Under the pieces are notes generated by a model that saw only the letters and a list, made by a program, of their open reading frames with translations, was not told where the DNA came from and ran no database searches. This document shows, piece by piece, positions 7,160 to 43,257 of a DNA stretch of 64,000 nt (position 1 is its first letter; each line of letters starts with the position of its first letter). A program made the translations under genes and the position numbers. The DNA comes from Folioceros fuciformis (lineage: Eukaryota): assembly GCA_049999805.1 (NCBI GenBank), contig JBNGIO010006314.1, positions 348,453 to 412,452 of the forward strand, read 5' to 3'.

Positions 7160-10100
7160 TTAACAAGTAGGAACAATCCACCTATCTATCAACAGATGTT
7201 TGTCTGCCCGCGTTGAGCCTTCGATCTTCATTTTGGAGAACACCTGGTTCAACCTTGCTTCACTCTTAGCATGCTTCCTATCTGCAACAGAAAAGCTATG
7301 CACCAGGCCATCTATGCCTGTCCACCAGGTCTGACCTGGCTGTTTCCATGCCTTAATTTGTATTCTCCTCATCTGCATCTCACGTGCCTGCTCCCACATC
7401 TGAGCACTGGTATATATGTTTGCCATCAACACATAAGCTGGAGCATCGCTCGTGTACCTCCACTGCTTGGTTGAATGCCTGGCATCCCACCTCCACGTTT
7501 CTCCATTTTTGACAGGAACGTAATAGGGTGTGCCAAACTGCAGAATTGGGCAGCATAGGCATTGTCGTTATCAGCACTAGTGCCTCGTCTAGGAGACCAG
7601 CACGGCCAAGAAGGTCCACCATGCATGTGTAGTGCTCCACTGTGGGAGTGATGTTGTATTGCCTGTTCATAGCTTCAAAATTCGGTCTACCCTTGCTCAC
7701 TAGACCTGCATGACTGCACACTGTCAGTACACTAACGAATGTAATACCTACTGGCTGTATGCCAACCTCTCTCATTCTTTCAACCAAGTCAAACACCATT
7801 TCACTCTTTCCTTGACAGGAGTAGGCCGCAATCAGTGCACTCCAGATAACAACGTCTTTTACAGGCAGCGCATCAAACACCTGCTGCGCATCAGCCACGC
7901 TCCCGGACTTCCCATACATGTTTATCAAACAACCCGCTACAAGCTCATCAGAATGGAGCCCTTGTTTTTCAATCTGTGCATGTAACTGTCTTCCCAGGTG
8001 CAAAGCTGCCACATTTGCACAAGCCTGCAGGAGGCACACAAAAGTCACTGAATTAGGTGCAGCTATGCCTTTTTGCATAGCGAAATAAAGACCAAGGGCT
8101 TCTTGGAGCATGCTCTGCTGGGAGTACCCTGCTATCAGTGCATTCCATGTCACCACATCTTTTTGAGTAAGACTATCAAACACATACAGAGCATCTTCTA
8201 GACTGCCACACTTTGCATACATGTTCAGCAAACTGTTAGCTACAAAGAGTTCAGCCTGATATCCTCTAGCTTTGATTTGCACATGAAGCTCCTTGCCTGT
8301 ACCTAAAGCCAGGGTACCCAAGCTTGCGCACGCCTGCAGGAGGCAGGAAAATGTTACAGAATCTGGCACAGCTTTGCCTTCTGCTTGCATAGCACCGTAA
8401 AGAGAGGGCTTCCTGGCCCATCCCCTGCTGTGAATACCCAGCTATTATTGCATTCCACGTTACCACATCTTTTTGACCAAGCTCATCAAACACTCGGCAA
8501 GCATCGTCTATGCTGCCACACTTTGCAAACATGTTTACCAAGCTGTTAGCTATAAACAGATCAGCTTGTTGCAGCCGACCTTTAATTTGCGCGTGAATCT
8601 GCTTTCCCGTCTCCAAAGACGATTTGCCCAGACTTGCACATGCCTGCAAGAGGCACACAAACGTCACAGAATCGGGTAAAGCTGCGCCTTCCTCTTCTTG
8701 CATAGCAGTGAACAGACCAAGGGCTTCATGGCCCATCCTCTGCTGGGAGTATCCCCCCATCATTGCATTCCACATCACCACATCTTTTTGGTTGATTCCC
8801 TCAAAGACACTTTGGGCGTCCTTCAAGCTGCCACATTTTGCATACGTATTCACCAAACTACTGGCTATGAACACATCTGCCTGAAGTCCTCGTTCTCTGA
8901 TTTGCTCATGAAGCTGCTTCCCCTCCTCAAAAGCTGAAGTGCCAACACATGCACATGCCTGAAGGAGGGACACAAATGTCGTGGAATCAGGTACAACCAT
9001 GCCTTTTTCTCGCATGTCACTGTAAAGAGAAAGGGCTTCCTGGCCCAGGCCCAGGTTGGAACACCCTGCTATCATGGCATTCCACACCACCACGCTTTTT
9101 GGATCAACTCCATCAAAGACAATCCGTGCATCTTTCAAGCTCCCACACTTTGCATACATGTTCACCAAACTGCTGGCTACATACACATCAGCTTGATGTC
9201 CCCATTCTCTGATTTGCGCATGCAGCTGCTTCCCCTTCTCCAAAGCTTGGGTTCCTACACTTACACATGCCTGCAGGAGGCACACAAATGTCACACGATT
9301 GGGTACAGATAAGCCCTCTTCTTGCATATCTGTGTGGAGACGAAGGGCTTTCTGGCCCATGCCCTGCTGGCCATAGCCTGCAATTAGAGCAGTCCATGTC
9401 ACAACATTTTTCTGGCTGAGTTCGTCAAACACTCTCTGTGCATCTTCCAAGCTACCACAATTAGTGTACATGTTCACCAAACTGTTGGCTACAAACAAAT
9501 CAGGGTGGAGTTTTTGTTCCCTCATCTGTGCATGAAGCAGCTTTCCCTTCTTCAAAGCCGATGAGCCTACACTTGCACAGGCCTATAAGAGGGACACAAA
9601 TGTCATGGAATTGGGTGAAACCATGCCTTCTTCTTCCATGACACTGTAGAGATGAAGAGCCCTCTGCCCCATACCCTGAAGAGAATACCCAGCAAACATG
9701 GAATTCCATGTTACCACATCTTTTCGATCCAGTTCATCAAACACAGATTGAGCGTCTTGCAAGTTACCACACTTAGCATACATGTTCACTAAAGTGCTGG
9801 CTACAAATACATCATCTTGGTGTCCTCCATTGTCAATTTGCGCATGGATCTGCTTCCCCGTTTCCAAAGCTGCGGTGCCCACACTGGCACACGCATGCAG
9901 GAGGCATGCAAATGTCACAGCATTGGGTACAGCCATGTCATCTTCTTGCATACTCTTGTAGAGACAAAGGGCTTCCTGGCCCATGCCGTGCTGGGAATAC
10001 CCTGCTATCATGGAATTCCACGTGACCACAGTTTTTCGACTCAGTTCGTCAAACACTTTTCGGGCATCTTCCAAGCTGCCACACTTTGAATACATGTTCA

Positions 10101-11819
10101 CCAAAGTATTTGCTACAAACACGTCAGTTTCCAACCCCTGCTCTCTAATTTGTGTGTGCAGCTGCTTGCCCTTCCCCAAAGCTGGAGTGCCCACACCTGC
10201 GCATGCCTGCAGGAGGCTCTTAAATGTGACAGAATCGGGTGCGACCTTGCCTTCTTCTTTCATAGCCCCGTCAAGCATCAGGGTCTCTTGGGCCATGCCG
10301 AGCTCAGAATACCCTGCTATCATTGCATTCCAAGCCACCACATCCTTCTGGGCAAGTGTTAAACACGCTTAGAGCATCTTCCAAGCTGCCACACTTTGAA
10401 AACATGTTGGCCAAACTGCTGGCTATGAACAAATCAGATTCGTCACCTCTTTCTCTTATCTTTTCATGAAGCTGTTTCCCTGTCTCTAACGCCAGGTTGC
10501 TCACACTTGCGCATGCCTGTAAGAGACAAACACAAAGCCACAGAATCGGGTACTGACATGCCTTCTACTAGCATGGCCCTGTAAAGACGTAAGGCTTCCT
10601 GGCCCAAGCCGTGCTTAGAATAGCCTGCTATCATAGCATTCCATGCCACTACATCTTTCTGGGTAAGTTCGTCAAACACTCTTTGAGCATCTTCCAAGCT
10701 GCCACACTTAACATATATATTCACCAAACTGCTGGCTACAAACGCATAAGCTCCATGTCCGTGTTTCCTTATTTGGAGATGAAGGCGCTTTCCCATCTCC
10801 AACCCTGGGGTGCCCACGGAGGCACAGGCCTGCAAAAGACACACAAACGTCACAGAATCCGGAACAACCAAGCCTTCTTCTTGCATAGCACTGCAGAGAC
10901 GTAGGGCTTGCTGACCAGTGCCTTCCTTGGAGTATCCTGCAATTAGAGCAGTCCACGTTACCAAATCTTTTCTTCGAAGTCCGTCGAACACTCTCTGAGC
11001 GTCTTGCAAGCTGCCACACTTTGCATACATATCCACCAAGCAACTAGAAACGAACAAATCAGGCTCCTCGCCACAAGCTAACACATCACTATGCACCTGC
11101 TGCCCAGTTTTCAAGTCTGACCCCCTTGGACAGGCCTGCAGGGCTGCAACAAATACGCGGCCGTCTGGCTTCACGCTTGTTTTGCGCATCCGTTCATACA
11201 GCTGTAAGGTCTGCTTGACTTGTCCATGTTTGACATGCGCAGAAATTATGGCGGACCACGTGAAAGAATCTGGTCTGGCAATTTCTTCGAACACATCCAT
11301 CGCATCTTGCAACCTGCCATGAGAAGCATACGTTCGCAGAATATGGTTGCACAGGAACGTATCAGACTCGTGTCCCGTTTTCACAGCAAAAGCATGGACA
11401 AGGCGACCCAAAACTAGATCCTTCTTGACTGCACAATTCTTCACGATAGTAATGAAGACAGATGAGGAAACACAACGGTCGGTTTGTACCAGAACTCCCA
11501 GAGCCTCAACAGCTTCAGCCAAATGGCCCTGATGACATAGATTGCACACGGTTTCAGCCGTCATGCTAATTTCGTATCCTGCAGGCTTGCACGGGCCGGG
11601 CTCATCCGGCCATTTGGATTTGGAGGCACGACGACCCATCAGCGAATCCTCTGACTCAACCTGGACATCTGCCTTGAACAAATGGATCGGCCCGACAAGC
11701 TCCTGGGAATGGTTATGCCGGCGCCGCAAAGGGCCATCGCAGCGAAATTCGTCGCCAACCCAACATCGCCTTGGACTGGCTGCCGTTCTTACGCGGCTGC
11801 TGGGCCTGGCGAGATCCAT
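7160..11819 (-). pseudogene. PLS-class PPR RNA-editing-factor gene (E domains, truncated DYW:WW-like end), disrupted
   Basis: About 12-13 PLS triplets (repeating MYAKCGSLEDA..VFD..KDVV.WNA.IAGY) are spread over consecutive ORFs. Frameshifts lie near 10530, 10355, 8400 and 7445, with an in-frame TAG at 9583-9585 (where other repeats have CAG/Gln). The C-terminus reads AWKQPGQTWWTGIDGLVHSF. Confidence 0.85.
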
Positions 11820-12317
11820 GTTTGCAAAATGCTTGGTTCCTTCAAATCAGGAGACCTTAGCTTGTCCTCGAATGCTCGTCAACCCCCCAGTTTGTCCAGT
11901 CCACGAAAACTGATTCCACGAGGGGTCCCGCTGGCCATAACAAACGCACAAGACAGCCATGGCATGTGCTGGAGAACGAACGCTCATGAGAAGACAGAAT
12001 TCGAATGAGCCGTACTTGGTGGGCAAACTGGGCTGCTTGGTTCACATTTCTCCCTTCTCGGGCTTAAAATACAACTCCGTAGCATTAGTTACGGACGTGG
12101 AATGTCGATCTATGTACTCTGCACCATGTTCCAACAAGTTTCTGAGGGGAGACTGATGACTACAAAGTCAGCCAGCGAAGTCCTGGACGAACAGGTCACT
12201 GGCACCTAGGCTGGGTTTCCATGGACCCGAACAAAAATGGCGGATGGCATCCGAGGCATCCTAAGCACCATCACGTGCTTTAAAACCTGGAAGAAGTGAG
12301 GGACCCATTGGGCGTCA

Positions 12318-17446: not shown

Positions 17447-18949
17447 TCATCGGAATTTCCTAATGGGCAAAGCCTTGCTAAACAGTTCTTCAATGTCCTT
17501 GGCCTCCATCTCGATCGTCTGCAGAAACAGCTTCTCCTCCTCTCCCAGCTGCGTCAAGAGAAACTCCTCTTCCTTCTTCAACTCCTCAAACCCCATCCCC
17601 AGCTTGGCCAGAAGTGGAGACAGCTGCCTCCGTCCGACCTCCTCGACCTCCTCAACAACCTCCTCCACTACCTCCTCCACCAACTGCACCTCCTTCACCA
17701 AAGCCTCCTCCCCTCGCTCCAGCGTCCTCTCCACCCGAGCCAGCAGGCTTGGCTCGGGCCCACAGGTGTTGTCGGTGCGCCTGAACTTGCCAAAATCGAG
17801 CCCGACCTTAGCCGCGGCCGACCGCAGCTCGGGCACGATGGTCTCGGGCAGGACCCGGCTGCGGGTGTACACTACAGCCCCGCCGTAGCCGTCCCAGGCG
17901 TCGTTCTGCCCCCGGTAGTAGACGAAGATGTAGTCGTCCGGCTGACCCTGAGTCCTGGCGGACAGGATGTACCAGTCGTCCTGGTAGTGCAGGAACTCGT
18001 TGCCATGGTTGTAGAGCACGCCGGGCTGGACAGGGTCCTGCACGAAGCGCTGCAAAGCGGTGCGGGTGAAGAAGCCGCCGTCCGGGGTGGTGATGCGCCA
18101 GGAAAGGTTGGCCGTGATGGCGTCCGGGGTGGCGGAAAACTTGTGCAGCTGGCAGTCGAAGGTGTCAAAGGTCGGATTGAGGCCGCTGCTGATGTACCAG
18201 TCCCCGGAGAAATCCACGATGTTGAAGGCGGGCACAAGGGCCTCCGGGGGTGGGACAGGGTATAGCCCCTCGTCCTGCTTCTGAGGGACGCAACCCTTCC
18301 TAGACACGGCGCAGTCGTTGAACTGATCCACCACCGCATTCTCGAACAGATCGCCGCACCCGATCTGGCAGTCCGTTTCGTCGGGCCGGTTGTTGCACGA
18401 CTGGAGGCAGGCCACATTAGCAGCGCAGAGCGGGTCGGCGATGCAGCGGGCCAGCTCCACTTTGCACTCCTTGAGCAGGCATGCGCATGTCTTGAGTGCA
18501 TCTGTGGCGTGAGCTGGCGGAGGCGCGCACAGGAGAGCTCCCGCTGTCATGGCTGTGGTAATCTGCACGGCCATAGTCTGCCATACCCCGCGCCATAGCC
18601 CTGACGGGGGGAGGTTCCTCCTCTCCACACCGTGCGTCTCGTAAACTGGCCCTGCACTCCACACCTGCTCCGAGGATTCGTTGCTCACCTTCTCTGCCGG
18701 AGCTCCCTTCCATCTCTTGAGATGCTCCCACCTCTCCGCCGCTTCCTTCTCCGCTGGCACCTGCTCTGCATTCCCGGCTCGCCCTGCCCGCTCCGATGCA
18801 CAAGCAGCAGCCGTTACCGCTCCCTTGCAAGAGCGGGAAGAGACGCACGCCGTGGAGCTGTAGCTGGCTTTCTCTTGCAAGCCGGACGATTCTGGTGCCC
18901 TAATTGACACCCATCGACAACCACACAGAGTGGACGTTGTGGCGGCCAT
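17447..18949 (-). CDS. VDE: Violaxanthin de-epoxidase, chloroplastic (single exon)
   Basis: 500-aa uninterrupted ORF: bipartite transit peptide ending AHA, Cys-rich domain ([13 protein letters not shown]), lipocalin core ([39 protein letters not shown]), Glu-rich tail and [11 protein letters not shown]. Confidence 0.97.
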
Positions 18950-19719: not shown

Positions 19720-21273
<1,554 letters not shown>

Positions 21274-21778
21274 GGTAGCGCACGTAGGGCCCCGCCCGCC
21301 CTCAGATCTGAAGCTGGTCAGGCGCTAGCAGAAGTGGTGAATAGCGAGCAGCGTTGAGTGCAAGCACAGAAATTGCGTGGGGGTCGGAGGAGCAGGGCGG
21401 GCGCGAGGAGGACACGGTAAGGCGCGCAGACAGGACAGATGGGACTGCGGAACCCAGCCGAGGACGCGACACGGCACAGGAGAGAGACTGGCAGAAGAGA
21501 AGCCAACAGCGAGAGCGCAAAACGAAGCCAGTGGCTGTAATAGGCAATTCCGTTAACCCCAAGAATTTATGTGTATGTACAATACTCTCAGCCCTAGACC
21601 AGACGTCTCCTCTCTAATGCACCACGCGCACGCGGTACATCACATCCAGTGGAGACCTCCATGTCTGGCTCTGGTCCAGTCAAGGATATCTCCTGCGAAT
21701 AATACCAAAGTCAAAAACTGGAGGAATGTGTTGTGTCGATGCATACACTTCCTTCCCGCAGCTACCGATGCAACAGAG

Positions 21779-23066
21779 CTATGCCATGCCAGGGCTGGCC
21801 TGGAATGATTTTCCCGAAGATGAAGGAAGGCGACGTTTTCTCCTGAAGCTTCCCACACGCCTTCTTCTCGCCATCCTCCGCCTCTTCTTCAAAATGCAAG
21901 CCGAAGGGACGCGCGAGACGACGTCGCAGCTCCCGTCAGTTTGCTTCCTTGCGAGCCTTGCCGGTGCCCCGTTTGGAGCGTTGAGACGCAGACGGGGCTG
22001 CGGCTTCCAAACGAGGGAGAGGCAAACGAGAAGGAAGGTAAGGCACAGGCATACGGAACGGGGCAGGGACTCCGACGGCAGGGAGTCTGGACAAACACAC
22101 AGGGGACACCAAGTTAGCAAACCAGCCTTCGGATACGAAGGCCTTAAGTGCACCTCGTCACAAGAGAGCACAGGCCTAGGAAGCAAACAAGAGGTCTGTA
22201 GATCCCGACCTCTTTCAAGCACTGCAGGCTCTGCCCCGACACACGCCGGGTCTTTTCGCTTCTTGGCACGTTCCAGTTCTTCCCGAAGAGCCAGATTCTC
22301 TATGGCCCCAAAGTTGATAGCTTGCTGAAGCTGGGTGCAGTGGACCTCAAGCATTCTACACTTCGCTTCCAGCTCTTTCACGTAGCATTTCTTCCTGGAC
22401 CTAGACTGGGATGCTGCCTCTCGGTTCTTCATGAGCCTGCCACGGAAAAGGCAGGCGCGAGGGTTAGGTTGAGCGAGGACGGACAAGCCACGGCTGTCCG
22501 TGATGTGTACTCAATCACTCTCACCTCAACTGCTTCTTGGCGTCAGCTTCGTCCACGCAGCTCTCGGCAGTGGTTGCCGCGCCCGGCTCTTCCCCGCTTC
22601 CAGTAGTTTGGGTTTCGGTGGCAGCATCCTGAAATCCAGCGCCGCCGTCCACATGATCGCTCCTACGGCGCTTCTGACCTTTCGAAACCCAGTCTTCTCC
22701 GGAGCCAGCAGCAGCGCACACCTGCTGCTCGGCATCGGCGTTGGCAAGGGCGTGGCCGGCATCGGCGTTGGCAAGGGCGTGGCCGGCATCCGGCTTCAGC
22801 CACACCTCTCTTGCTCCATCCACATAATTCCGCCAGCCCTCGCTGGCCTCACTCCCGTTGTCAGTGATGAGTGCATCCGAGCTGCCAAGCTGCTGCTGTG
22901 CAGCGGCAGGGATGGTGGTAGCAGCAGGAGGGTTGTGATCTGGGCACAAGAGCTCGGAAATCAGATCATCCAAATTCTCCAACTCTCCCTCCACTGCTGC
23001 AGCATCCCACAAGGGTGTGTGTGTATCCCCCCATAACCATCCGTCAGCATCACACTCGACTTCCAT
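21779..23066 (-). CDS. bZIP60: bZIP60-like ER-stress transcription factor. Exons 23066-22525, 22436-22210, 22086-21779 give a 358-aa membrane form; the IRE1-spliced form is 298 aa, stop at 21936-21938
   Basis: Basic region KKQLR|LMKNREAASQSRSRKKCYVKELE, leucine zipper, EPAVL motif, TM segment SVCLCLTFLLVCLSLVW, and an IRE1 twin stem-loop visible after conventional splicing. The start codon is the first in-frame ATG. Confidence 0.9.
22079..22224 (-). other. IRE1 unconventional 23-nt intron (22224-22210 + 22086-22079) split by a spliceosomal intron (22209-22087)
   Basis: Spliced mRNA reads GAGC-CUG^CAGU-GCUU GAAAGA GACUCC-CUG^CCGUC-GGAGUC: two stem-loops with CUGnnG loops whose cut sites are 23 nt apart. 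Confidence 0.88.
22730..22790. repeat. 27-bp tandem duplication inside bZIP60 exon 1 (DAGHALANA x2)
   Basis: Two perfect copies of ggcatcggcgttggcaagggcgtggcc plus a partial third. Confidence 0.95.
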
Positions 23067-24420
23067 GGGGCAGCCAGCGCCTGTTTCACTCCAGGTGCAA
23101 CCTCTCGGCAAACCCCATCAAGCGGCTCGAGTCGGGCAAAACGAATCACCATTCACTGCCTCACCACGAACGAACAGGCAACAACGCAATGAAATCTCAC
23201 AACCGTGGCTCCCCTGCATCTGCATCAACCACAGCCACGGCTCCCACCGAGCCCAGGAACCCTAGGGTGTTGGACGGAGAAGTTGCGAAGCAATGAAGAA
23301 ACGTGGTTATGGACTGCTTATCCTAAGTTAGCCCTCTGTACAGTATTAGGCAGTATGTTACCCTCCGTAACCAGTAGGAAATTTCCATGGGCGCCATTTC
23401 CAAGATATACTGTGCCTACTGGCTACTGCTCGCTGGTATCTGCTAACCCTGGACTATTTCTGTGCTGTAAGCGCGCTGACACTGTTACAACTAGGAGAGT
23501 AGGAATATCTCGTTAAGAGTTCCTTTCCTGTTGGTCGGCCTCTTCCTTCAAGCTGGGAGGGAGAATGCTGAGCAGCGGACGACACGGATTCAGGTGTGTA
23601 GAGAGCGAAGCCCACACTTCGAGAAAGAACACAACACCGTTTGGGCGTCTACTTCCGCACGACGCCTGAGCTCTCTAGATTTTTCACATAGCGCGTAACC
23701 AGATAGAAGTGATCCTAAACTACGGCGCGATCTTCCTCGTTGTCAAGTACTCTGCAGTTGCGCGAGTGAGAAAGAGCAGACCTGGAAGGCTGGGAGGTGT
23801 GGGAGGGTGACCACGAGACGTGATTTCGGAGGGGAAGGTTGTTCTGGATTAGTACATACTCCGAAGAACATTAGTGAGAATGAAAGTCACTTCGGCTTCC
23901 CCCCTACGATTATGCAACTTGCTTCCGGGAAGCAAAGCTGCAAGAGGCTGACACGCGGGCGGTAGAGAAGAAGCGCGGGCTTCAAAGCGCCGGATTAATG
24001 GAGCCCCCTGTCTGATTTTTGTAATGCGTGAGACGAAGTCTTTGAAATATTCGTAAGACGGAGTACAGTTGGGTGCACGGATACAGATAGAGGTGGCCCC
24101 GTTGCAGCTGCCTCCTGGTACACCAACAGCTATTAAGGAACTGTGTTCTCGAGAGCTCGTAAGACATCACACATAACGCCCGATCATGCTGGAAAACTCC
24201 GGTCTTGCAACAGTTGGCTGCCATGCATGTCCCGGCGAAGGCTTTGATCCGATCGTGTACATGTATAGAGATCCAAATTCGACAAGTTGCAACCATGCGA
24301 TGCTGGCGCCCTCCGCCTTGCAACCTCGTGGCCGCAACTACCACTCACACCCACAAAGCACTGTCCCTTGGTACTAGCAACCTCGGTGGTGAGAGAAGTG
24401 ACTGCTGATTGAAAGTGACG

Positions 24421-29487: not shown

Positions 29488-31008
29488 CTACAAGGGGCTG
29501 CCAGCCAGCCAACGCTGAAAGAGAGCCAGAGCCTCCTCCGGTTTGTATTCGGGGACAGTGTGGCCGGCGCCTTTGACCGTAGCGAAGGTGAGCGTGCCGT
29601 GCGCGTAGCCTCTGGTGTATCCCACAACCTGGCCCGACACATGCCACGGCCGCCAGTGATCGGAGACGGGGTAGCCCAGCGACCTGGTCCAAGCCTCAGA
29701 GCCGGTGTAAGGCACGCACATGTCGTGGTCCCCGCTGAAGATGAGCGCCCTGTAACCTTTCTCGATGAGACGGCGGTGGATGGGGAGCATGCTTCCGGCG
29801 TCGTGCCAGAAGAGGATCTGGTCCGTGCACAACACCCAGTTCCCGATCTCTTCGTGCGGCTGCGCGTGCAACGCTTCCCGGACGACCGGATCGTTCAGCC
29901 AGGCATTGGCCACCGTGTCGTCAGTGCACGGCACCTCGATGTCGCTCTGCAGTATGCCCCAGGTGGGAACCCTGCCCTCCGGAATGGAGCCGGAGCGCAG
30001 CGGCCACGCCCGCCCGAACATCCGCTTTCGCACCGGGTGCGTGCGCGGGTTGCTCTCCCCGAGCCGCCTGAAGCTGCGGGGTAGCCTCGTCCTGTCATTT
30101 TCGGAGGAACCGACCTGCTCGATGACGCTGCTGGGGGAGGTCGGGTGGTAGCAAGGCTCCAGGATGTCGTACACATTCACTTCGTCCACCGTGTTGTAGA
30201 TGTCCTCGATCTTGCGGATGCATTCCCGGGAGGAGGCGTTCCAGAAGCTCCCTCCGCAGGCCACGTTCGCATCAGTGTACAGGTCGATGGATATGAGCCC
30301 CATTCCGTACACGAACGGCACCAACGCGTCCCCGTCGAACTTCTCATCCGTGCACCCGTTCCCAACAATGTAGCCCTTGAGGTTGATGGCGGGCTTCTCG
30401 CCGGCGGCAATGCCTTCCGCCACCTTCCTGGCCAAGGTTGGGACATAGATCCCGGCGTACGACTCCCCGCTGATGAAGAAGGGGTTGGACTGGAATTCGG
30501 GGTAGGCCTGGAACCAGTCGAGGAGGAAGGTGTGGGAGTCTGCCGCCGTCTGCAAATCCCCTGTGAGATAGTCTGCCTTGTTCTTTGAGTAGGAGTAGCC
30601 GACCCCGGACGGGGAATCCAGGTAGATGATGTTGGCATTTTTGGCCCAGCTGTATGGGTTCTTCACCAGAGTTGGCAGCCCGTTAGGTTCCGAGGACGGC
30701 TCGAAGTTGAAGGGCCCGTGCTCGTAGATGAAGCCGTCGAAGCTGGAGCATCCAGGGCCGCCATTGAGCCACAAAACCACGGGATCGCTGGCAGGGTCCC
30801 CTTCCGATGTCACGAAGTAGTAGTACAGGCTGCGCTCATGCTCCGGGCTCACCGTGATGTACCCTGCATAGTGCTTGGAGGCGAACTCCCCCGAAAACCC
30901 TGGCAGCTTCTCCACCAATGCCCCATCCGGTGCCGCTTCCGCCCCAAACCGCTGCTGCGCCAGCACCGTAAAGAGCAGCAGCGTGCAAAATGCAACCGAA
31001 GTCTCCAT
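29488..31008 (-). CDS. Serine carboxypeptidase-like (S10, SCPL20-like), single exon
   Basis: Signal peptide after METSV, WLNGGPGCSS, GESYAG (catalytic Ser), RKRMFGRAWP linker, SGDHDMCVP (Asp), KGAGHTVPEY (His). An alternative ATG lies at 31065. Confidence 0.95.
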   Translation of the reverse strand: METSVAFCTLLLFTVLAQQRFGAEAAPDGALVEKLPGFSGEFASKHYAGYITVSPEHERSLYYYFVTSEGDPASDPVVLWLNGGPGCSSFDGFIYEHGPFNFEPSSEPNGLPTLVKNPYSWAKNANIIYLDSPSGVGYSYSKNKADYLTGDLQTAADSHTFLLDWFQAYPEFQSNPFFISGESYAGIYVPTLARKVAEGIAAGEKPAINLKGYIVGNGCTDEKFDGDALVPFVYGMGLISIDLYTDANVACGGSFWNASSRECIRKIEDIYNTVDEVNVYDILEPCYHPTSPSSVIEQVGSSENDRTRLPRSFRRLGESNPRTHPVRKRMFGRAWPLRSGSIPEGRVPTWGILQSDIEVPCTDDTVANAWLNDPVVREALHAQPHEEIGNWVLCTDQILFWHDAGSMLPIHRRLIEKGYRALIFSGDHDMCVPYTGSEAWTRSLGYPVSDHWRPWHVSGQVVGYTRGYAHGTLTFATVKGAGHTVPEYKPEEALALFQRWLAGSPL

Positions 31009-31344
31009 CTTTGCGAGCCGCACTTGCCCAAAAGACTTGCTCTGAACGCACCAAGAAACGGGCATCTTGGAGGAAGGAAGCCAACGCACATATGTACGTT
31101 ACGCTCACTAAAAATAGATTTCGTCCAGGCCGGAATGTATGGAAGCTAGGCTGCGGGTCATTCCGCGCCGTTCACTTGTTCCGCCAAAATTCAAGGCTTC
31201 AGTGTGTGGTGCGTAGTGTGGCATGGTAGGTAGGGACATGGGTGACGTAGCCAACTTGCCACACGGAGAAAGGAGGACAATTTCTCTCAGCGTCAGGTAA
31301 AGCTTTCAAGTTAAGGTAAGCGGTGACGGCACTGGCGTGTCTGC

Positions 31345-32832
31345 TTACAGTTTCTGAGACAGCAAAAAACGCTGCAACAAGACCAAGGCTTCTCTGGGCC
31401 TATACTCGGGGACGGTGTGGCCAGCCCCCTTGACGGTGGCGAATGTGAGGTCGTGCTCGAAGCTTCTTGTGAAGCCGGCGACCTGGTCGTTCACGTACCA
31501 TGGTCGCCAGTCGTCGGTGGTTTTGTAGCCCATGGAGCTTGTCCAGGCCTCTGATCCAGTGTAAGGGACACAGAAATCGTGGTCTCCGCTGTAGATGAGG
31601 GCTCTGTAGCCTGCCTCGGTGAGGTTACGGTGAATCGGGATCATGCTGCCGGCGTCGTGGTTGTAACTCAGTCGGTCAGTGCACAGTTGCCAGGTGCCCG
31701 GTTCCGGGCGAGCATGTATGGCGGACCTCACTCCTGCGTCATTCAGCCAGGAAAATGCGACACTGGGGTCTACACAAGGAACCATCACGCCACTGCTCTC
31801 GCTCAACGCAGTCCAGGTGGGCACAGGTCCATCTTTCAGCCCCAAACCCAAAGGCCAGGCTCGGCCAATCATGCGTTTCCTGATTGGGTAAGGACGCTCT
31901 GTTTGCCCCAGAGTGACGAAGCTTGGTGGAAGCTGACTGTTAGATGATCCTTTTGGGCTCGGGGGATGGTAGCATGGTTCTAAGATGTCGTAGATGTTGA
32001 GGTCTGCTGTAATGTCGAAAATCTTGTTGAGCTTCTCACCACACGCGTCGCTCGTCACCAGCCAGAAGGTCCCGTTGCAAGCCTTCACGGCCTCGAGGTA
32101 TAGGTCCGACGATATAAGCCCCATTCCATAAGCGAAGGGCACATAAGCATTGCCATCCGCCTCCTCATCTGTAACACCATTCCCAACAAGGTATCCCTTG
32201 AGGTTTATGGCTGGCGTTACTCCATCCTGGATACCTGCAACAATCTCTCTGACGAGAGTTGGGACATACACCCCAGCCCATGACTCGCCACTGACAAAGA
32301 AAGGATTCGACTGGAATTCTGAATAGATTGTGAACCACTTCAACAGAAATGCGTGTGTGTCTCGCGCAGTTTTGAGGTCACCCGTGCTGTAGTCGCTGGT
32401 GTCATTGGAGTACGAAAAACCAACTCCGGCTGGACTGTCCAAGTACAAAACGGATGCACTTTGAGCCCACGTGTAGTGATTCCTCGTCAGAGTAGGTAAA
32501 GCTCCAGCTTCCTTAGCTGGATGGAAAAGGAAAGGACCATGCTCATAGACGAATCCATCGAAACTGGAGCAGCCAGGACCTCCATTGAGCCACAGTACCA
32601 CTGGGTCCGACGTTGGATCCCCCTCCGAAGTGACAAAGTAGTAAAACAGAGACCGCCCAGTGGCTTCGTCAACAGTCACATATCCTGAATAGTGCTCGGA
32701 AGCAAAGGATCCAGCAAATCCTGGAAGGCCAATCACTAAGGCGTCCGAAGGAGCTCCATCTCCTACTTGGACCGTCAGCACCACACTAAGACACACAAGC
32801 CAGCAAGCTCGTCTGAAGCTATAAGGTGCCAT
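31345..32832 (-). CDS. Serine carboxypeptidase-like (S10, SCPL20-like), single exon, tandem paralog
   Basis: Signal peptide, WLNGGPGCSS, GESWAG, RKRMIGRAWP, SGDHDFCVP, KGAGHTVPEY. Confidence 0.95.
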   Translation of the reverse strand: MAPYSFRRACWLVCLSVVLTVQVGDGAPSDALVIGLPGFAGSFASEHYSGYVTVDEATGRSLFYYFVTSEGDPTSDPVVLWLNGGPGCSSFDGFVYEHGPFLFHPAKEAGALPTLTRNHYTWAQSASVLYLDSPAGVGFSYSNDTSDYSTGDLKTARDTHAFLLKWFTIYSEFQSNPFFVSGESWAGVYVPTLVREIVAGIQDGVTPAINLKGYLVGNGVTDEEADGNAYVPFAYGMGLISSDLYLEAVKACNGTFWLVTSDACGEKLNKIFDITADLNIYDILEPCYHPPSPKGSSNSQLPPSFVTLGQTERPYPIRKRMIGRAWPLGLGLKDGPVPTWTALSESSGVMVPCVDPSVAFSWLNDAGVRSAIHARPEPGTWQLCTDRLSYNHDAGSMIPIHRNLTEAGYRALIYSGDHDFCVPYTGSEAWTSSMGYKTTDDWRPWYVNDQVAGFTRSFEHDLTFATVKGAGHTVPEYRPREALVLLQRFLLSQKL

Positions 32833-34129
32833 CGAAACCGAGCTGGCCTCACCAGCACACTGCAATGCCACCTCCGGCTGACCACAGCTCGAGTTAATCT
32901 CGGCAGGGAGGGAGAGAATTCTCCTTCAGACAGGCGGTGCGCAGCACACTGCACATGCCAGAGCAGTGTGCGTGCTCTATCCTTCTCCCTCTTTTGCTGA
33001 CACCTGAGGAAGCACATTGGAGGCCGTTTCCTTAAGTAGGACTGATGCAAGATGCCTTGCAGGAAAATCCAACCGGCGCGAGCAAGTGCCCACAGCACTC
33101 GTCTTAGCGTTGATTCCAGAGGAAGGCGACCACAGGCAGGAGGAAACTGCACGACGTTGCTGCGACCTCTCCAGTGCCATCACCAACAGATGCTCTTCCC
33201 TGCAGCCAGCCGGCGTCCTTCTAGTGAGGACGGACCTCACCATCCAACAGCGATGCCTTGACCATTGGTTCCGTCAAAACCACCTGCTTTGAACAGAAAT
33301 AGAACAAGCTGGAGGGGGCATGCAGCCTGTCGACACCACGGTAAGTGCTCTCCACTGCCGGAGATAGCGGGAAAGCCTAGCCAAGTGGAGCACCGGGAAG
33401 AGATAAGACTGGAGAGGAGACCAGGACAAAGCAAACACTTTGGTGGCCACTCCACCTCTTCTCCGTAAACGAAACTGTCTCCATTCACAATGCTTCACTA
33501 CTCCGGAAGCTCCATTTCCTCTGTGCTCCACGCTGGGAGCATGGAAATGACCGCAACGCCGAATAGAACGCAAATCTTCCGTGCCTGCACGGCCCACACA
33601 CACGGTGGCCGGCTGGAGTAGGGTTCCTGGTCCCAGCAGTACCTGAGGGGCCACTCGCTGGATGGTGACATCGAAACCTCCGGACTGCAAGCATTGTATG
33701 CGTACTTACTTCTGAGAGCTCCCGGCCCAGGTGACTGCGAGGTTTCTCTCCTCGCGTACGATGCGTCCAGGAGTAAGCACTTCGCCATCTCCGTTATGGC
33801 ATTCCCCAGTCTCCTCATGTTACTCCCGGTTGTGTTGCGAATCAGTTTGAGAATGTAGAAGTTTTGTCACTGCGACCAGGCACGCAACGACAGGGTTGTT
33901 CTCTCATGACCACACAACGAGAACATAGAAAACGTCTACTGTAGAGCACATCTGCCGAGAAAAAAAATGTTTTAATTGCATGTGTCTCCCAAATTCGGGT
34001 CGCACCTAAGATAATGAGGAGCGACCCAGTAACAGCCTAAGACATTCTACGGATGATTAACATGCGGTGAACCTAGTCATGTAACTTGCGGTGAACCTAG
34101 TCATGATGATTCGACAGGTGCCTCGTGCA

Positions 34130-37100
34130 TCACACAGTCTTGCACAATTCCTTCATTTCTGAAAGCGAAGGGCTGAGAGGTACGCTCGGGTAGCATTTGG
34201 CCATCATGTTCTCCAGGCCCTCGTACTTGTCCAAGAAGCTTTCCTGCACCAGACACCTGCGTGGTCAGCACACCATGCCCAACACGCTTTCGTCCAACCC
34301 AAGCAACAGCAGTAGCTCCCACCTTGCATTTCTCCCAAAGCGAAGGAAGCAATTCCTCGGAGGTCAGATGCTTTTGCATGCGCCTGTACATCGTTTGGAG
34401 ACTTTTCTCCACCTACCCAATGGCATGCCAGATCTCTTGAGTCAGCTACCGCAGCAACCAAGGCCACCCAGATCCAGGCTAACACGAGAAACTACAACTG
34501 CTTACTCCTGGGAGAGTCGCTTTCAGAAGCTTGCGAAGGTCTGCGTTTGAGGTCCCCACTTGATAGTGATAGGCGACCTAGAAAAAGACCACCACTGGAT
34601 CGTCTGAAAACTCAACACAGAAAAACAGCAGCCAGCATTAAAGGGTTGAAGGGCAAGAAATACCTCTTCAGGAGTAACTGTGTACAGCAGGTTTTCCACT
34701 TTTTGTGTGAACTGGAAAAGTTTATCAAATTGCTGCCGCAAAAAACGATCGACAGTTGCAGGATACACTTCGTTCTCAAAATACTGTCAGAATGAAGTAC
34801 AAAGTTCCGAACTCACATAAATTGTAATCGAAGAGATGTAACTCACATAATTTATAATCGAAGTGATGTAGCGGGTGCACGCTTGTTCGTACGATTCACT
34901 GGCTTGCTGATAGTACTTGGCTAAAGTTGGGACTTTATTGGCCAACTCAAACATGCTACACCGCAACCAAGAATCTCATTATTCACTGTAATGCTCAAAG
35001 AGCCAGAATCTGCATTACATCTCTGAAAGGGAAATCAGACGATCAGGAGCAAAAAGGAATACAGGCAACCTGTCATTCACCTGTTCTGAAAAGCTGCGTA
35101 GTTTTCCAGAAGCAAGACATCGGAGTGCTTTGGATCAAGGCTTGCAATGTGTTCGAGTACATTGAACATTGTACCCACCTGGACAATGAACCGGACAGCT
35201 CAGCCAAAAAGGCCTTCCCGCAGCATGAAACTCATCGATTTTGTACATTACCAGCTTTGTGTAGGCAGTGTCAACCATGTCTCTTGAGTTTCCCTGAATG
35301 AGACTCTCCATTTTTGCAGCTAATGAAGCAAATCTGTTCATGATGGGACACAACACATGGTAAGTCAGTTCCTCCGTTAAAATCATGTCCATTAGCATGA
35401 CATAAGAGTGGGTTCAACAGTTTTCATTCACCTTGGGATGTAAGATATGACCCCCGCTTGCTTCACACTGCCATTCCTCTCAATGCTGTGCATGGATTCC
35501 TCTATAAACTGTGAGAGAAAAAAACTCTTTGAGCACTAACAGCCTGATGGACCAGCTGCATCCTCTCAAGCTCATTCTGACACTCCCAAGTGTTCATGAA
35601 AGGTGAAAAGGGGACAGCACAGTGAAGACAAACCTTGTTGAACTGGCTGCTTATTCTGGACTGGAGATCAGCCAGCAACTGTCGCACAAAACCAGCAGCA
35701 TCAGCTTTGTGACCAGAGAGGTACCGCTCTGTCACACCTTGCATAGCTATACACCGCAGGGGATCCAGTTTCGAGGCCCAATCAACCACTGCATAAAAAT
35801 CTTCCTGCAAACGTGAAGAGATCAGCGTCTGCCGACCTGCCACAGGAGTGCATTGATCACTATCATTCAAGATATTTGTCCTACCTGAATTCCATTAAGC
35901 AGCTTATGTAAAGCTTGATTCAGAGCCTCCAACTCCGCATTATTCTGCTCTCCTGCAAGTGAACGCCAGAAATTTCAATCATCTGCATTTTGACCTTAAC
36001 AGGAGCTTATCTGTAAAGCTTTCCACCGACGAGTGCACTGGTTATTGCTGTGCCACATGTTTGTCGTCACACCATTTGACCCTATTGGCGGCAGTGACGG
36101 GACGAAGTGTAGGAATTTACTTTGCTTTGAATCATTGCCATCCATGTGCAAAGGGCTTATATCACCATCGTCATCATCTTCATCCCTCTTGTCAGGAGGA
36201 GGACCACCAGGGGGTGCGAGAGGGAGAACTTCNNNNNNNNNNNNNNNNNNNNNNNNNNNNNNNNNNNNNNNNNNNNNNNNNNNNNNNNNNNNNNNNNNNN
36301 NNNNNNNNNNNNNNNNNNNNNNNNNNNNNNNNNNNNNNNNNNNNNNNNNNNNNNNNNNNNNNNNNNNNNNNNNNNNNNNNNNNNNNNNNNNNNNNNNNNN
36401 NNNNNNNNNNNNNNNNNNNNNNNNNNNNNNNNNNNNNNNNNNNNNNNNNNNNNNNNNNNNNNNNNNNNNNNNNNNNNNNNNNNNNNNNNNNNNNNNNNNN
36501 NNNNNNNNNNNNNNNNNNNNNNNNNNNNNNNNNNNNNNNNNNNNNNNNNNNNNNNNNNNNNNNNNNNNNNNNNNNNNNNNNNNNNNNNNNNNNNNNNNNN
36601 NNNNNNNNNNNNNNNNNNNNNNNNNNNNNNNNACGTGGATCACACACAAAGCTGAAGACTTACTTCTCGGCGCAGCAGAAAGTTAAGAGCATCACAATAT
36701 GCATCACGCAAATGTGCTAGGGAGTTCTTCTCCAGACCCTGCACATCTCAAAGATCTGTACCCTCACCTGCAAACAAGATGGATGATTCAAGACATTGAC
36801 ATGGGAGCTGACTGTCACAATACCTTGAGGTGTTGAAGCATCCGGGCATATGTTCGACACTTAAATCGGAGATCCGCATGATCTGGCCTTTTCAGCTGGC
36901 CTTTCTGCATTACAACACGGAGGTAGCTGTTGGAACACGTAATTAAAGCTGAAACGTGCTTTTCCAGAAAAAATAAGACCATTGACCATCCTTGAGTTGG
37001 CGTCAAGCGTGCCTGCGAGAAATGAGTTTTATCTTGGGCCATAAATTGAACCACGTTTGAGAAATAGTCCGCCAAAAACTCTGTTGCACGACGGACAAAT

Positions 37101-39772: not shown

Positions 39773-41106
39773 CTAACATGATCACTCGGAAGCCGATTTT
39801 ATATGCATGTCATCGTAAGAGTTTTATAAATTCTGAGAAGCGTTACCACAATCTATAATGCGATGCTGGAAGCGTACCTCCCGTATAAGATACGATCTCC
39901 TTTTAGAGACTAAAAGGACAAGACATTAAGCTGATACTGTAAATTGCGATAGTCGGAGTAGTACCAGAAGATCAAAAAGCGGGCCTTGCAAGCTTCCGTA
40001 CAAGAGTACAAGAATACCCCATCCGGCCAGTTATCCGAGTCCAGAAATCGCTTGTAGAAATGACAGAACAGGAGCACAAAGCCGCTAGGATAGTGCATTT
40101 GTACACCTTATTAATTTTTTGTACGTATCCAGGTACGCAGGTATTTATGTCTAAGTGGGCATGAAAGGAGGACGGGCGGTCTGGTGAAGAAGATGCCGGT
40201 TGAAAAGGGGTCGCGGCCAGCGGCCAGCGGCCAACGGCCGTTACGAGGGTGTGCAAAGCGCCGCGCGGCCCTGGGTTTCGCCCGGGTCATACAGGTCGGT
40301 TTCGCCAGGGCCGTTACCCCCTGCCCGGTCCCGGGACACGACCGCCACTTTCTCCTTCCGCCAAAGTGACGGCACTTCCCCCATTCCATTCCCGTCAGCC
40401 CGCGCTCGCGCTTCCTCCACTGTTCTCTCTTAGCTTGGCGGCCCCGCTAAACGCCTCGCCTCGCCTCGCTTCCCTTTCCTTGCCTGGCCTGGGCTTCCCC
40501 TTCCTCTCCCCCTCGCCTCCGCCTCACGGGATTACTTCACAGTTGGGAGAGCAGGTGCGGGAGAGGAAGACGTTGGGGCACCTTCGTCCGGGAGAAGGGA
40601 AGCGCGCCGGCCAGCAGACCGAGGCGGTCGGGCGCACCTCAGCGCACCGCAGTGCAGTGCTGTGCTGTGCTGTGCGGACCGCAGCAGAGCACACCGTAGC
40701 AGAGCAGCCGAGAGCCGAAGTGAGCGCGCACTTGCGACGGCCTCGGCCCCGCCCCGCCCCCGGCTGGCTGGATCTCGTCCGGCTGCCCTCGAGGCCGGGG
40801 TAATTCCCGCCCTGCCGAGCCGGCTTTCTTCCGCGGCGCCACCATTTCCGATGCCGCCGAGCCATATCTTGATGAACGGGGCGGCGCCAGGTCGTGTGCC
40901 TGCTTGTGGCCTGGGCTGCTTCTGCTACGTCGGCTGAGGGACCGTGTGCTGCTGCTCTGAGATNNNNNNNNNNNNNNNNNNNNNNNNNNNNNNNNNNNNN
41001 NNNNNNNNNNNNNNNNNNNNNNNNNNNNNNNNNNNNNNNNNNNNNNNNNNNNNNNNNNNNNNNGTAGGAAGCAAGAAACTGGGGGATCACTGGGGGAGGG
41101 AAAGAA

Positions 41107-43257
41107 ATGGAGGCGGAAAAGAGGGCTCTTGGGATGAAGGGAGGGACAGGGACGGGGACTGGGACTGGGACTGCGGCAGCGGCAGCGGCAGCGGTGGGAG
41201 GCGACGACCGCATCAAGGGCCCCTGGTCGCCGGACGAGGACGCCATGCTCAATCAGCTGGTGGAGAAGGTCGGGCCGCGGAATTGGAGCCTTATAGCTAG
41301 AGGCATCCCTGGTCGGTCGGGGAAGTCTTGCCGGTTGAGGTGGTGCAACCAGCTGAATCCGGGAGTGAAGCGGAAGCCCTTCAGCGGTGAGTGCGGCAGG
41401 TGACTTGTATGTATGTGTGTATGTGTGTATGTGTGTGCGGCGCCTTGGCCTGCCTTGTGAGGATTGTGGTGTGCAGCGCTTGTGTGTGCTTGTCTGTCCT
41501 GTCGGTATCAAGAGGCTGGCGGCAGCAGCGGAGACACAGGTATGAGATTGCTTCACCTGCGCGGTGTGAATGGATCTAGGGTACTTGCAGTACAGTTAGG
41601 TAACGTTGTGTAGTGCCGGATGTTCTCATGGTATGTGTCTGGCTTTCTTTTGCGTGAGCAGATTTGAAATAAATACCAGTGCAATCAATCTGAGCTGTGC
41701 TTGACTCTAGCGGGAACCTTCTTGAAGCCGTGATACTTCTTCAGTGCATGTGAGACCTGGTTCATGTAAAGGTGGTTGCACGTTGGTGTGTGCCCCTCAT
41801 ATCTCGTGTGCACCATGTTCTACATTTTCGATTTACAGTCTGGCTCTAGTGTTATTACTTGGTTCAAGAGGGCAGGAGTGTGATGAGATGGGAGGGTTGG
41901 CAATCTGCACCTGGGGAAGGAAGTGGAGTGGTTTCCCTTTGTTTTACGTCGCTGTAGTGTCCGCAGTACAAGGATAGACCCGAACAGGGCTGTTACCTGC
42001 AGATAAGCTGATGGGTGTGGCCGGCCCTCGACTGTATCTTCTTTCTGTGGCTCCCTTGCGGCTGATTCGCATGTCATGTATTTGTGTTTGGCAGAAGAAG
42101 AAGATCGAGCTATCGTGGCAGCTCATTCCATTCATGGGAACAAGTGGGCCGCCATCGCTCGAATGCTCCCAGGGCGAACAGACAATGCAATCAAGAACCA
42201 CTGGAACTCCACCCTTCGCCGCAAATACATCGGGGATGACAGAGGTCAAAAGGAGGGTTCTTCAGATGGCTCAGATAGGTTGAAGGAGGAAATCAGTGAC
42301 ACGGATCGAAGCAAGTTGGGCAGGGATGACATGGATCTGGATGATGTTGGTGATGATTCTGGAAACAGGGATGGAGGTGACTATGAAGAAGACATGGCCA
42401 TCTCCTCGGAAACCCCGCGAAGTTCTTACTTCGAGTCAAAACTGAGGTCTGGGCTAAAAGGATCGAAACTAGGTGCAACGGACCAACTAGTAAAGCCAAG
42501 TGGTATGGAAGAAGCCACACATGCTACTCACATGACGGAAGCTCTTGTCCGACCTATACCTATACCCCGTGCCAGCGCATTCAGCAGTTACAGTGCCGTT
42601 GCAAGCAAACCTTCTTGCAATATGAAAGGCAATGAGTATGGCAGGGACGAGTTTGGGAATGGCTACAGTCCATCGCTGTCACTTTTCCTCCCGTCCTGTG
42701 TCAATTTTGAGGAAGACTGCTCTTTGTTTGCCCCCCGTAATGCAACCATGAGTCCCCACTGGCGCTGGAACACACCGGAGGTTCCGAGCCATTGTGGCAG
42801 GGGTTGTTGTCCTCCTCAGCTCTATGGAGCACAAGGGGAAAATTCCATCTCTCCTAAAGGTCCACTCATGGGTCCGGATTATGTGGAATTTGCAGAAGAC
42901 TATTTTCCTACTTCGAGTGGACTCTCAAATCTCTCTGTCTACAGTGACATGCTAGGTGTAGGTGGAGAAGGTGCAGGAGGTGGATGTGGATCGCCAGCTT
43001 CTGAGATGCTTGCTTCTGCTATCAACTCTGCTGTTGCACAGATGATGTTGCCAATGTTTCACGCACAGATGCAACAGCAGGAGCAGCAGGGGGGTGGAGA
43101 TAGCTGGCCTGGTGGCATAGACACAGGGGGTAATCAATCATGCAATAGCGACCTAGTCAGTTTGATGAGGGGCATTGTTGCGAGGCAGATAACTGTCTAC
43201 ACCTCAGCTGCTGTCATGGCCCAGGACAGTTCCGAGCAGAACGAAAACAAGCAGTGA
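41107..43257 (+). CDS. R2R3-MYB transcription factor (MYB1/MYB25/MYB109-like). Exons 41107-41386 and 42095-43257
   Basis: [12 protein letters not shown]...[75 protein letters not shown], with a phase-1 GT-AG intron. The N gap just upstream could hide an earlier start. Confidence 0.95.

Follow-up and report, generated by a model that had tools for sequence, protein, structure and literature searches.

The locus described here raises a simple question: how can an mRNA offer IRE1 a canonical twin-hairpin substrate when the DNA that encodes this substrate is interrupted by an ordinary nuclear intron? Arabidopsis is the plant from which the IRE1-bZIP60 switch is understood. For its bZIP60, Nagashima et al. 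described hairpins with loops of the 7-nt type, the second having 8 nt, that flank an intron of 23 nt, or of 20 nt in monocots (PMC3216516). The window, by which we mean the whole 64,000-nt stretch of DNA that was analysed, carries on its minus strand a bZIP60-like gene of three exons and two introns in which a corresponding 23-nt segment is divided between exons 2 and 3. The answer that we favor is that a spliceosomal intron is nested within the IRE1 intron, that splicing assembles the IRE1 substrate, and that this layout is common to mosses and many other plants; taken jointly with the assignment of the gene as a land-plant bZIP60 orthologue, we place its probability at about 0.85.

The features of the gene are collected in Table 1. 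Transcript contigs lie over 23295-21534, and the mature mRNA of 1322 nt encodes 358 amino acids. A bZIP DNA-binding domain is present (Pfam bZIP_1, E 2.1e-6), its 28.2 bits barely exceeding the cut-off of 27.6. The first intron falls inside the basic region of that domain, and an intron within the basic motif has been reported for group K bZIPs (PMC2492810). Two minor features of the minus strand belong to this part of the gene. In the N-terminal region of low conservation, a direct repeat in exon 1 (22740-22795) encodes the peptide DAGHALANA twice. Within intron 1 lies a hairpin of 8 perfect base pairs and a 7-nt CNGNNG loop (22479-22501), which has no partner within 18-30 nt and is probably a chance occurrence.

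Table 1. Features of the bZIP60-like gene and its predicted IRE1 site (window coordinates)
Feature	Coordinates	Strand	Remarks
bZIP60-like coding region	21779..23066	minus	ATG at 23066; stop of unspliced frame 21781-21779
Exon 1, coding part	22525..23066	minus	180 aa, poorly conserved; lies under X1 records 1 and 5
Intron 1	22437..22524	minus	88 nt, GT..AG, inside bZIP basic region; skipped in X1 record 1
Exon 2	22210..22436	minus	227 nt; bZIP domain, basal-stem 5′ arm, hairpin 1, linker, first G of hairpin 2
Basal stem, 5′ arm	22231..22238	minus	8 bp; 22-29 nt upstream of the exon junction
Hairpin 1	22217..22231	minus	4-bp stem, 7-nt loop CUGCAGU; predicted IRE1 cut 22225|22224
Nested spliceosomal intron 2	22087..22209	minus	123 nt, GT..AG, phase 1; exactly these nt omitted in X1 record 1
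Exon 3	21779..22086	minus	coding part; exon begins at 22086, stop at 21781-21779
Hairpin 2	22068..22086 and G at 22210	minus	8-nt loop CUGCCGUC; predicted IRE1 cut 22079|22078
Basal stem, 3′ arm	22059..22066	minus	pairs with 22238-22231
Hydrophobic (predicted membrane-anchor) segment	22007..22057	minus	unspliced frame only
Stop of shifted frame (23 nt removed)	21936..21938	minus	298-aa product, basic tail

That intron 2 is an intron can be read from a public sequencing run, X1, whose label as RNA is a guess and which alone gave contigs over the gene, two further runs, X2 and X3, yielding none. Among sampled words of the gene, 79% are present in this run. Its record 1 (1019 nt, depth 121.5) covers 22759-22524, 22435-22210 and 22086-21534; it joins 22210 exactly to 22086, the junction that the preliminary description of this DNA had predicted, and it also passes over exactly 88 nt at intron 1, with a joint at 22525|22436. 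Both skips end in GT..AG on the minus strand. Two exact skips, together with the lack of any intron-bearing contig, match the expectation for cDNA. The spliceosome removes the 123-nt intron from the bZIP60-like transcript, and the intron has the marks of the U2 type: GT..AG ends, a branch-like CTAAC at 22117-22113, 27 nt 5′ of the acceptor, and exact removal in RNA-like contigs.

If the 123 nt were retained, the reading frame would continue through them without a stop and yield a protein of 399 amino acids, and one might take the segment for a coding in-frame insert and not an intron at all. We give this notion next to no credence, since the RNA-like contig lacks exactly these nucleotides, GT..AG ends included, and the insert has no counterpart in full-length relatives. 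No contig in X1 represents the 399-aa form, and a homologous-protein search with the read-through of exons 2 and 3 returned no matches. The IRE1-spliced joint, a gap of 146 nt in genomic terms, is likewise absent from the X1 contigs, which drop rare variants. X1 also holds a second record of interest (293 nt, depth 3), a near-identical spliced IRE1 site in which two letters of the linker differ and the flanks are unrelated. It matches the window solely at 22234-22212 and 22086-22063 and resembles the moss-type contigs L004 and L006 discussed below; it could come from a second bZIP60 gene or from another organism in the sample.

Nucleotides 1-15 of the 23-nt segment lie before the nested intron and nucleotides 16-23 behind it, the break falling where hairpin 2 has its foot; the two CUG^ cut sites are 23 nt apart in the spliced mRNA versus 146 nt apart in the genome. 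What the preliminary description had said of the sequence itself, namely the form of hairpin 1, the bounds of the intron, its CTAAC motif and the positions of the cut sites, holds throughout. Its picture of a hairpin 2 split by the intron stands for a single nucleotide: the first G (22210) is contributed by exon 2, and all the rest of hairpin 2 lies in exon 3. In the pre-mRNA, the last G of intron 2 could take the place of that G.

It had been claimed, too, that the twin-hairpin site with its 23-nt spacing is present only in the spliced mRNA and that a genome-level search for twins would miss it, and both statements agree with a scan for hairpins with a stem of at least 4 pairs and a loop of 7 or 8 nt beginning CNGNNG, two such hairpins counting as a twin when their cuts are 18-30 nt apart. 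The 1322-nt mature mRNA contains exactly two hairpins of this kind, which together form the twin and whose loops of 7 and 8 nt both start with CNGNNG. The unspliced gene contains three single hairpins and no twin. On both strands of the window, the same scan finds 97 single hairpins and just one chance twin, which corresponds to about 0.01 chance twins expected per mRNA of this length (one in 128 kb of window sequence). That one contiguous chance twin, at 41370-41415 on the plus strand, has cuts 26 nt apart and 8-nt loops; the stretch around it is GC-rich and adjoins a run of N. An Rfam scan of 21500-23300 with E values up to 10 gave three chance-level matches, none of them to an IRE1-site family; in the DNA scanned, the element is in two parts.

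The preliminary description had proposed folding the spliced mRNA as a check. The predicted structure is a three-way junction in which an 8-bp basal stem closes off the two hairpins, themselves joined by a short linker; the basal stem is an addition to the earlier account. At -24.9 kcal/mol this canonical fold lies within 0.1 kcal/mol of the minimum free energy (MFE) of -25.0; an energy equally low or lower is reached by 16 of 1000 dinucleotide shuffles (z-score -2.49). Pair probabilities are 0.99-1.0 in hairpin 2 and, for the 5′ arm of the basal stem, 0.91-1.0 in mature mRNA and pre-mRNA alike. Three of the four pairs of hairpin 1 reach 0.75-0.84 in the mature mRNA. In the folded pre-mRNA, hairpin 2 and the basal stem persist and all four pairs of hairpin 1 have a probability of 0, because the intron is predicted, on thermodynamic grounds only, to pair with hairpin 1. 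Scan and fold thus support the view that the putative IRE1 substrate of this gene exists only after nuclear splicing.

The site falls precisely in the interval that separates the bZIP domain from the hydrophobic helix. In the unspliced frame, the 19-residue Kyte-Doolittle maximum begins 14 residues past the IRE1 site. In silico removal of the 23 nt (22224-22210 plus 22086-22079) shifts the frame and converts the protein of 358 amino acids into one of 298 that is without the hydrophobic helix and ends in a short basic C-terminal tail. Translation and hydropathy thereby bear out what had been proposed for the consequence of the cut, the 19-residue maximum being 2.16 in the unspliced frame versus 0.47 in the shifted one.

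A comparison of intron position among relatives, also proposed at the outset, was made with metagenome loci recovered by a 20-base exact pattern from hairpin 1. There are 14 such loci, 10 genomic and 4 transcript-like. Every one of the 10 genomic loci has a GT..AG intron, 274-312 nt long, at the identical nucleotide, and all four transcript-like loci (L004, L006, L008 and L014) are intron-less with the identical junction. L008 is 96-100% identical to L009, L010 and L001, aligning in three exon blocks on L009 and L010; L014 aligns in two blocks, at 94-99% identity, with L002, L003, L013 and L005. Wherever exon 1 is covered, the three-exon structure is that of the window, with an exon 2 of 236 nt versus 227 nt in the window.

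Over the 4 distinct site sequences that this comparison provides, and covariation can draw on no larger number, there are three double-sided compensatory changes. Two fall in the basal stem, and the third is the first pair of hairpin 2, which straddles the exon junction and is G-C in the window versus A-U in the loci. In all five sequences compared, the unshifted frame encodes a hydrophobic stretch, and the shifted frame is open for 49-60 codons that are Pro-rich and then basic. In the moss-type elements, the canonical fold lies 3.3-4.2 kcal/mol above the MFE, with pair probabilities of at most 0.15 in the thermodynamic ensemble.

These loci bear on the suggestion that IRE1 itself removes all 146 nt from an intron-retaining RNA, as it does the long intron of yeast HAC1, with the GT..AG splice dispensable. 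In the pre-mRNA, the basal stem and hairpin 2 both have predicted probabilities near 1, which brings the ends together; removal of 146 nt or of 23 nt produces the same frameshift; and in the window no stop interrupts the reading frame through a retained intron. Against this, the sole contig across the site is cleanly spliced at a depth of 121.5, none of the pairs that make up hairpin 1 is predicted in the pre-mRNA, and donor, branch motif and acceptor of the 123-nt intron are all normal. In the related genomic loci, moreover, the retained intron introduces in-frame stops in 10 of 10 cases and varies in length over the range given above. We regard removal by IRE1 of the entire 146 nt as extremely unlikely and prefer a nuclear splice that precedes any action of IRE1.

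How widely the gene is broken at this point can be gauged from the protein family. A HMMER search gave 97 matches, 19 of them with E at or below 1e-10, and the peptide motif of hairpin 1, E-P/S-A-x-L, is found in 91. Named relatives among them are P0007 from Ceratodon purpureus and P0026 from Physcomitrium patens. Contiguity across the site is seen in 54 of the 97, which are spliced models or transcripts and so are silent on the intron. A further 33 break off at the codon with which hairpin 2 starts; one, P0010, reads in frame through the intron of the P. patens paralogue P0026; six are missing the site motif and three are truncated or unclear. Most of the 33 breaking matches are short open reading frames (ORFs) that start at exon 2. 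The residue after the break is Gly in 30 and Ser in 3, all moss-type, and the next is Lys in 14 of the 33, the remainder being others expected from GT(A/G)…. Judged from these protein sequences, the break pattern is the signature of a phase-1 intron that has been read through.

The breaks occur in a bryophyte-like class, in which the moss genomic fragments P0005, P0043 and P0053 break at the same codon, and in two further classes. One of these has the Arabidopsis-type site peptide, to which the Arabidopsis 23 nt (PMC9302528) translate; in the other, the linker is shorter by one residue, in agreement with what has been published on monocots (PMC3369818). From site spacing, we infer that the two classes are probably dicot-like and monocot-like, respectively. 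The paralogue P0010/P0026 stands somewhat apart: its hairpin-1 peptide has diverged, its linker is one residue longer, and the intron that it carries at the shared codon can, like that of the window, be read through in frame. The gene may be decaying, or its regulation may differ.

The resemblance to Arabidopsis bZIP60 is close. Both proteins combine a bZIP domain with a C-terminal membrane anchor, predicted in our case, and both mRNAs have loops of 7 and 8 nt with conserved bases; in both, removal of 23 nt, again predicted here, causes a frameshift that drops the anchor (PMC3216516). The difference lies in the DNA. In Arabidopsis the 23 bp are uninterrupted, lying "within the second exon" (PMC4398384, Fig. 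4 legend), and genomic PCR across the hairpins gives a product of the unspliced size (PMC4393087). Here the 123-nt GT..AG intron splits the 23 nt, so that the substrate, unlike that of Arabidopsis, would be assembled by nuclear splicing.

The nearest experimental precedent is that of P. patens, whose PpbZIP60L mRNA loses 23 nt on heat, as seen in reads that were mapped to the mRNA (PMC11077094). One of the family members, P0104 (324 aa), fits the residue numbers published for PpbZIP60L (Ile-273, Arg-284, Arg-285, Arg-297/Arg-299 and Gly-300; PMC11077094), and its site peptide is identical to that of L004 and L006. The passages of that study that the search covered leave a nuclear intron at the site unmentioned, and the genomic comparison for this species is with the paralogue P0010/P0026.

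Because all the defining features of a plant site match, the shifted frame is conserved, and a moss site of the same class loses 23 nt, we infer by analogy that the bZIP60-like mRNA of this plant undergoes IRE1-dependent cutting. Another view would hold that the twin hairpin is vestigial or fortuitous and that the protein is freed from the membrane otherwise, for example by proteolysis. Hairpin 1 is admittedly weak, having just 3-4 pairs. Such a view is nonetheless difficult to reconcile with the chance expectation of about 0.01 twins per mRNA, with the exact placing of the site between domain and helix, with the conservation of the loop motifs and the shifted frame in distant relatives and with the removal demonstrated in moss (PMC11077094). 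We consider this view highly unlikely, and suppose that the twin hairpin serves as an IRE1 site.

The course of events would then be as follows. The spliceosome first removes the 123-nt intron from the pre-mRNA, leaving a spliced mRNA that both encodes the 358-aa bZIP protein with its predicted membrane anchor and displays the canonical twin-hairpin substrate. Upon ER stress, IRE1 would cut both CUG^ loops and a tRNA-type ligase would presumably join the ends; after ligation, the frame would be shifted and the anchor lost, giving a soluble factor of 298 amino acids with a basic tail.

The logic of two loop cuts followed by ligation is shared with yeast HAC1 and animal XBP1, whose introns are 252 nt and 26 nt, respectively (PMC3216516, PMC4398384). 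For the removal of those introns IRE1 and ligase suffice, and in the portions of these sources that were covered no inner spliceosomal intron is described; the resemblance of the long HAC1 intron to the 146-nt genomic distance seen here is superficial only.

In twintrons and in recursive splicing, it is the loss of an inner intron that provides a second removal step with its substrate. The present arrangement differs in that unrelated machineries would act in two compartments, the nuclear spliceosome and then, as we suppose for the second step, cytoplasmic IRE1 with a tRNA-type ligase.

The texts covered by the literature search make no mention of a nuclear intron inside an IRE1 intron. The pathway and the family are already known, and the nested layout is apparently an unremarked variant of them. 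Since annotated genomes already contain the exon junction, we regard it as an unremarked, apparently ancestral variant and no new system. To judge from the sequences compared, the split arrangement looks to be widespread in land plants and not special to the lineage of the window, with Arabidopsis as the exception; probably the split layout is ancestral and the intron was lost in Arabidopsis.

A conserved intron position need not be functional. One can speculate that the nested intron has been kept since it licenses the IRE1 substrate, by way of the exon-junction complex or of regulated retention, and we think this unlikely. An exon-junction complex deposited about 24 nt upstream of the junction would lie over 22238-22229, where the 5′ arm of the basal stem passes into hairpin 1, and the three-way structure could then not form until a first ribosome had cleared the complex away. 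Alternatively, regulated intron retention would gate the amount of cleavable mRNA at the ER; in the fold predicted for the window, thermodynamics has the intron sequestering hairpin 1. If either the licensing or the retention gate were real, the plant unfolded protein response would have a control point at nuclear splicing that Arabidopsis no longer possesses.

Whatever the reason for its persistence, the nested intron has practical consequences. The data suggest that the uninterrupted layout of Arabidopsis is the derived one; in the plant of the window, in mosses and in many others, the putative IRE1 substrate would be absent from the genome and created by the spliceosome. A search for twin hairpins in genomic DNA fails at the bZIP60-like locus. 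In RNA-seq mapped to the genome, the IRE1 product would appear as a non-GT-AG gap of 146 nt here and of about 300-335 nt at the moss loci, and odd gaps of this kind can easily be dropped or annotated wrongly. Primers and genomic-DNA controls that follow the logic of Arabidopsis will not transfer.

The remainder of the window has gene content of a land-plant type, including PLS-type pentatricopeptide repeat (PPR) arrays, a violaxanthin de-epoxidase, serine carboxypeptidase-like genes, LRR receptor kinases and MYB. Runs of N, which are scaffold gaps, lie at about 21100-21200, 36230-36640 and 40930-41030, and appear as stretches of X in the translated ORFs. Very long minus-strand ORFs at 7380-11846 and 60563-63283 encode tandem PLS-type repeats, adjacent ORFs totaling more than 1400 amino acids; arrays of this type are characteristic of plants that edit their organellar RNA heavily. 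Together with the short introns, the large PPR arrays suggest a hornwort, though as no more than a guess. Two serine carboxypeptidase-like genes, each a single long ORF, stand in tandem on the minus strand at 29488-31098 and 31345-32925. The violaxanthin de-epoxidase (17450-18949, minus strand) is a single uninterrupted ORF of 500 amino acids whose best match is 70% identical, and matches from a fern, liverworts, a conifer and a lycophyte, 56-69% identical, are listed before those from angiosperms.
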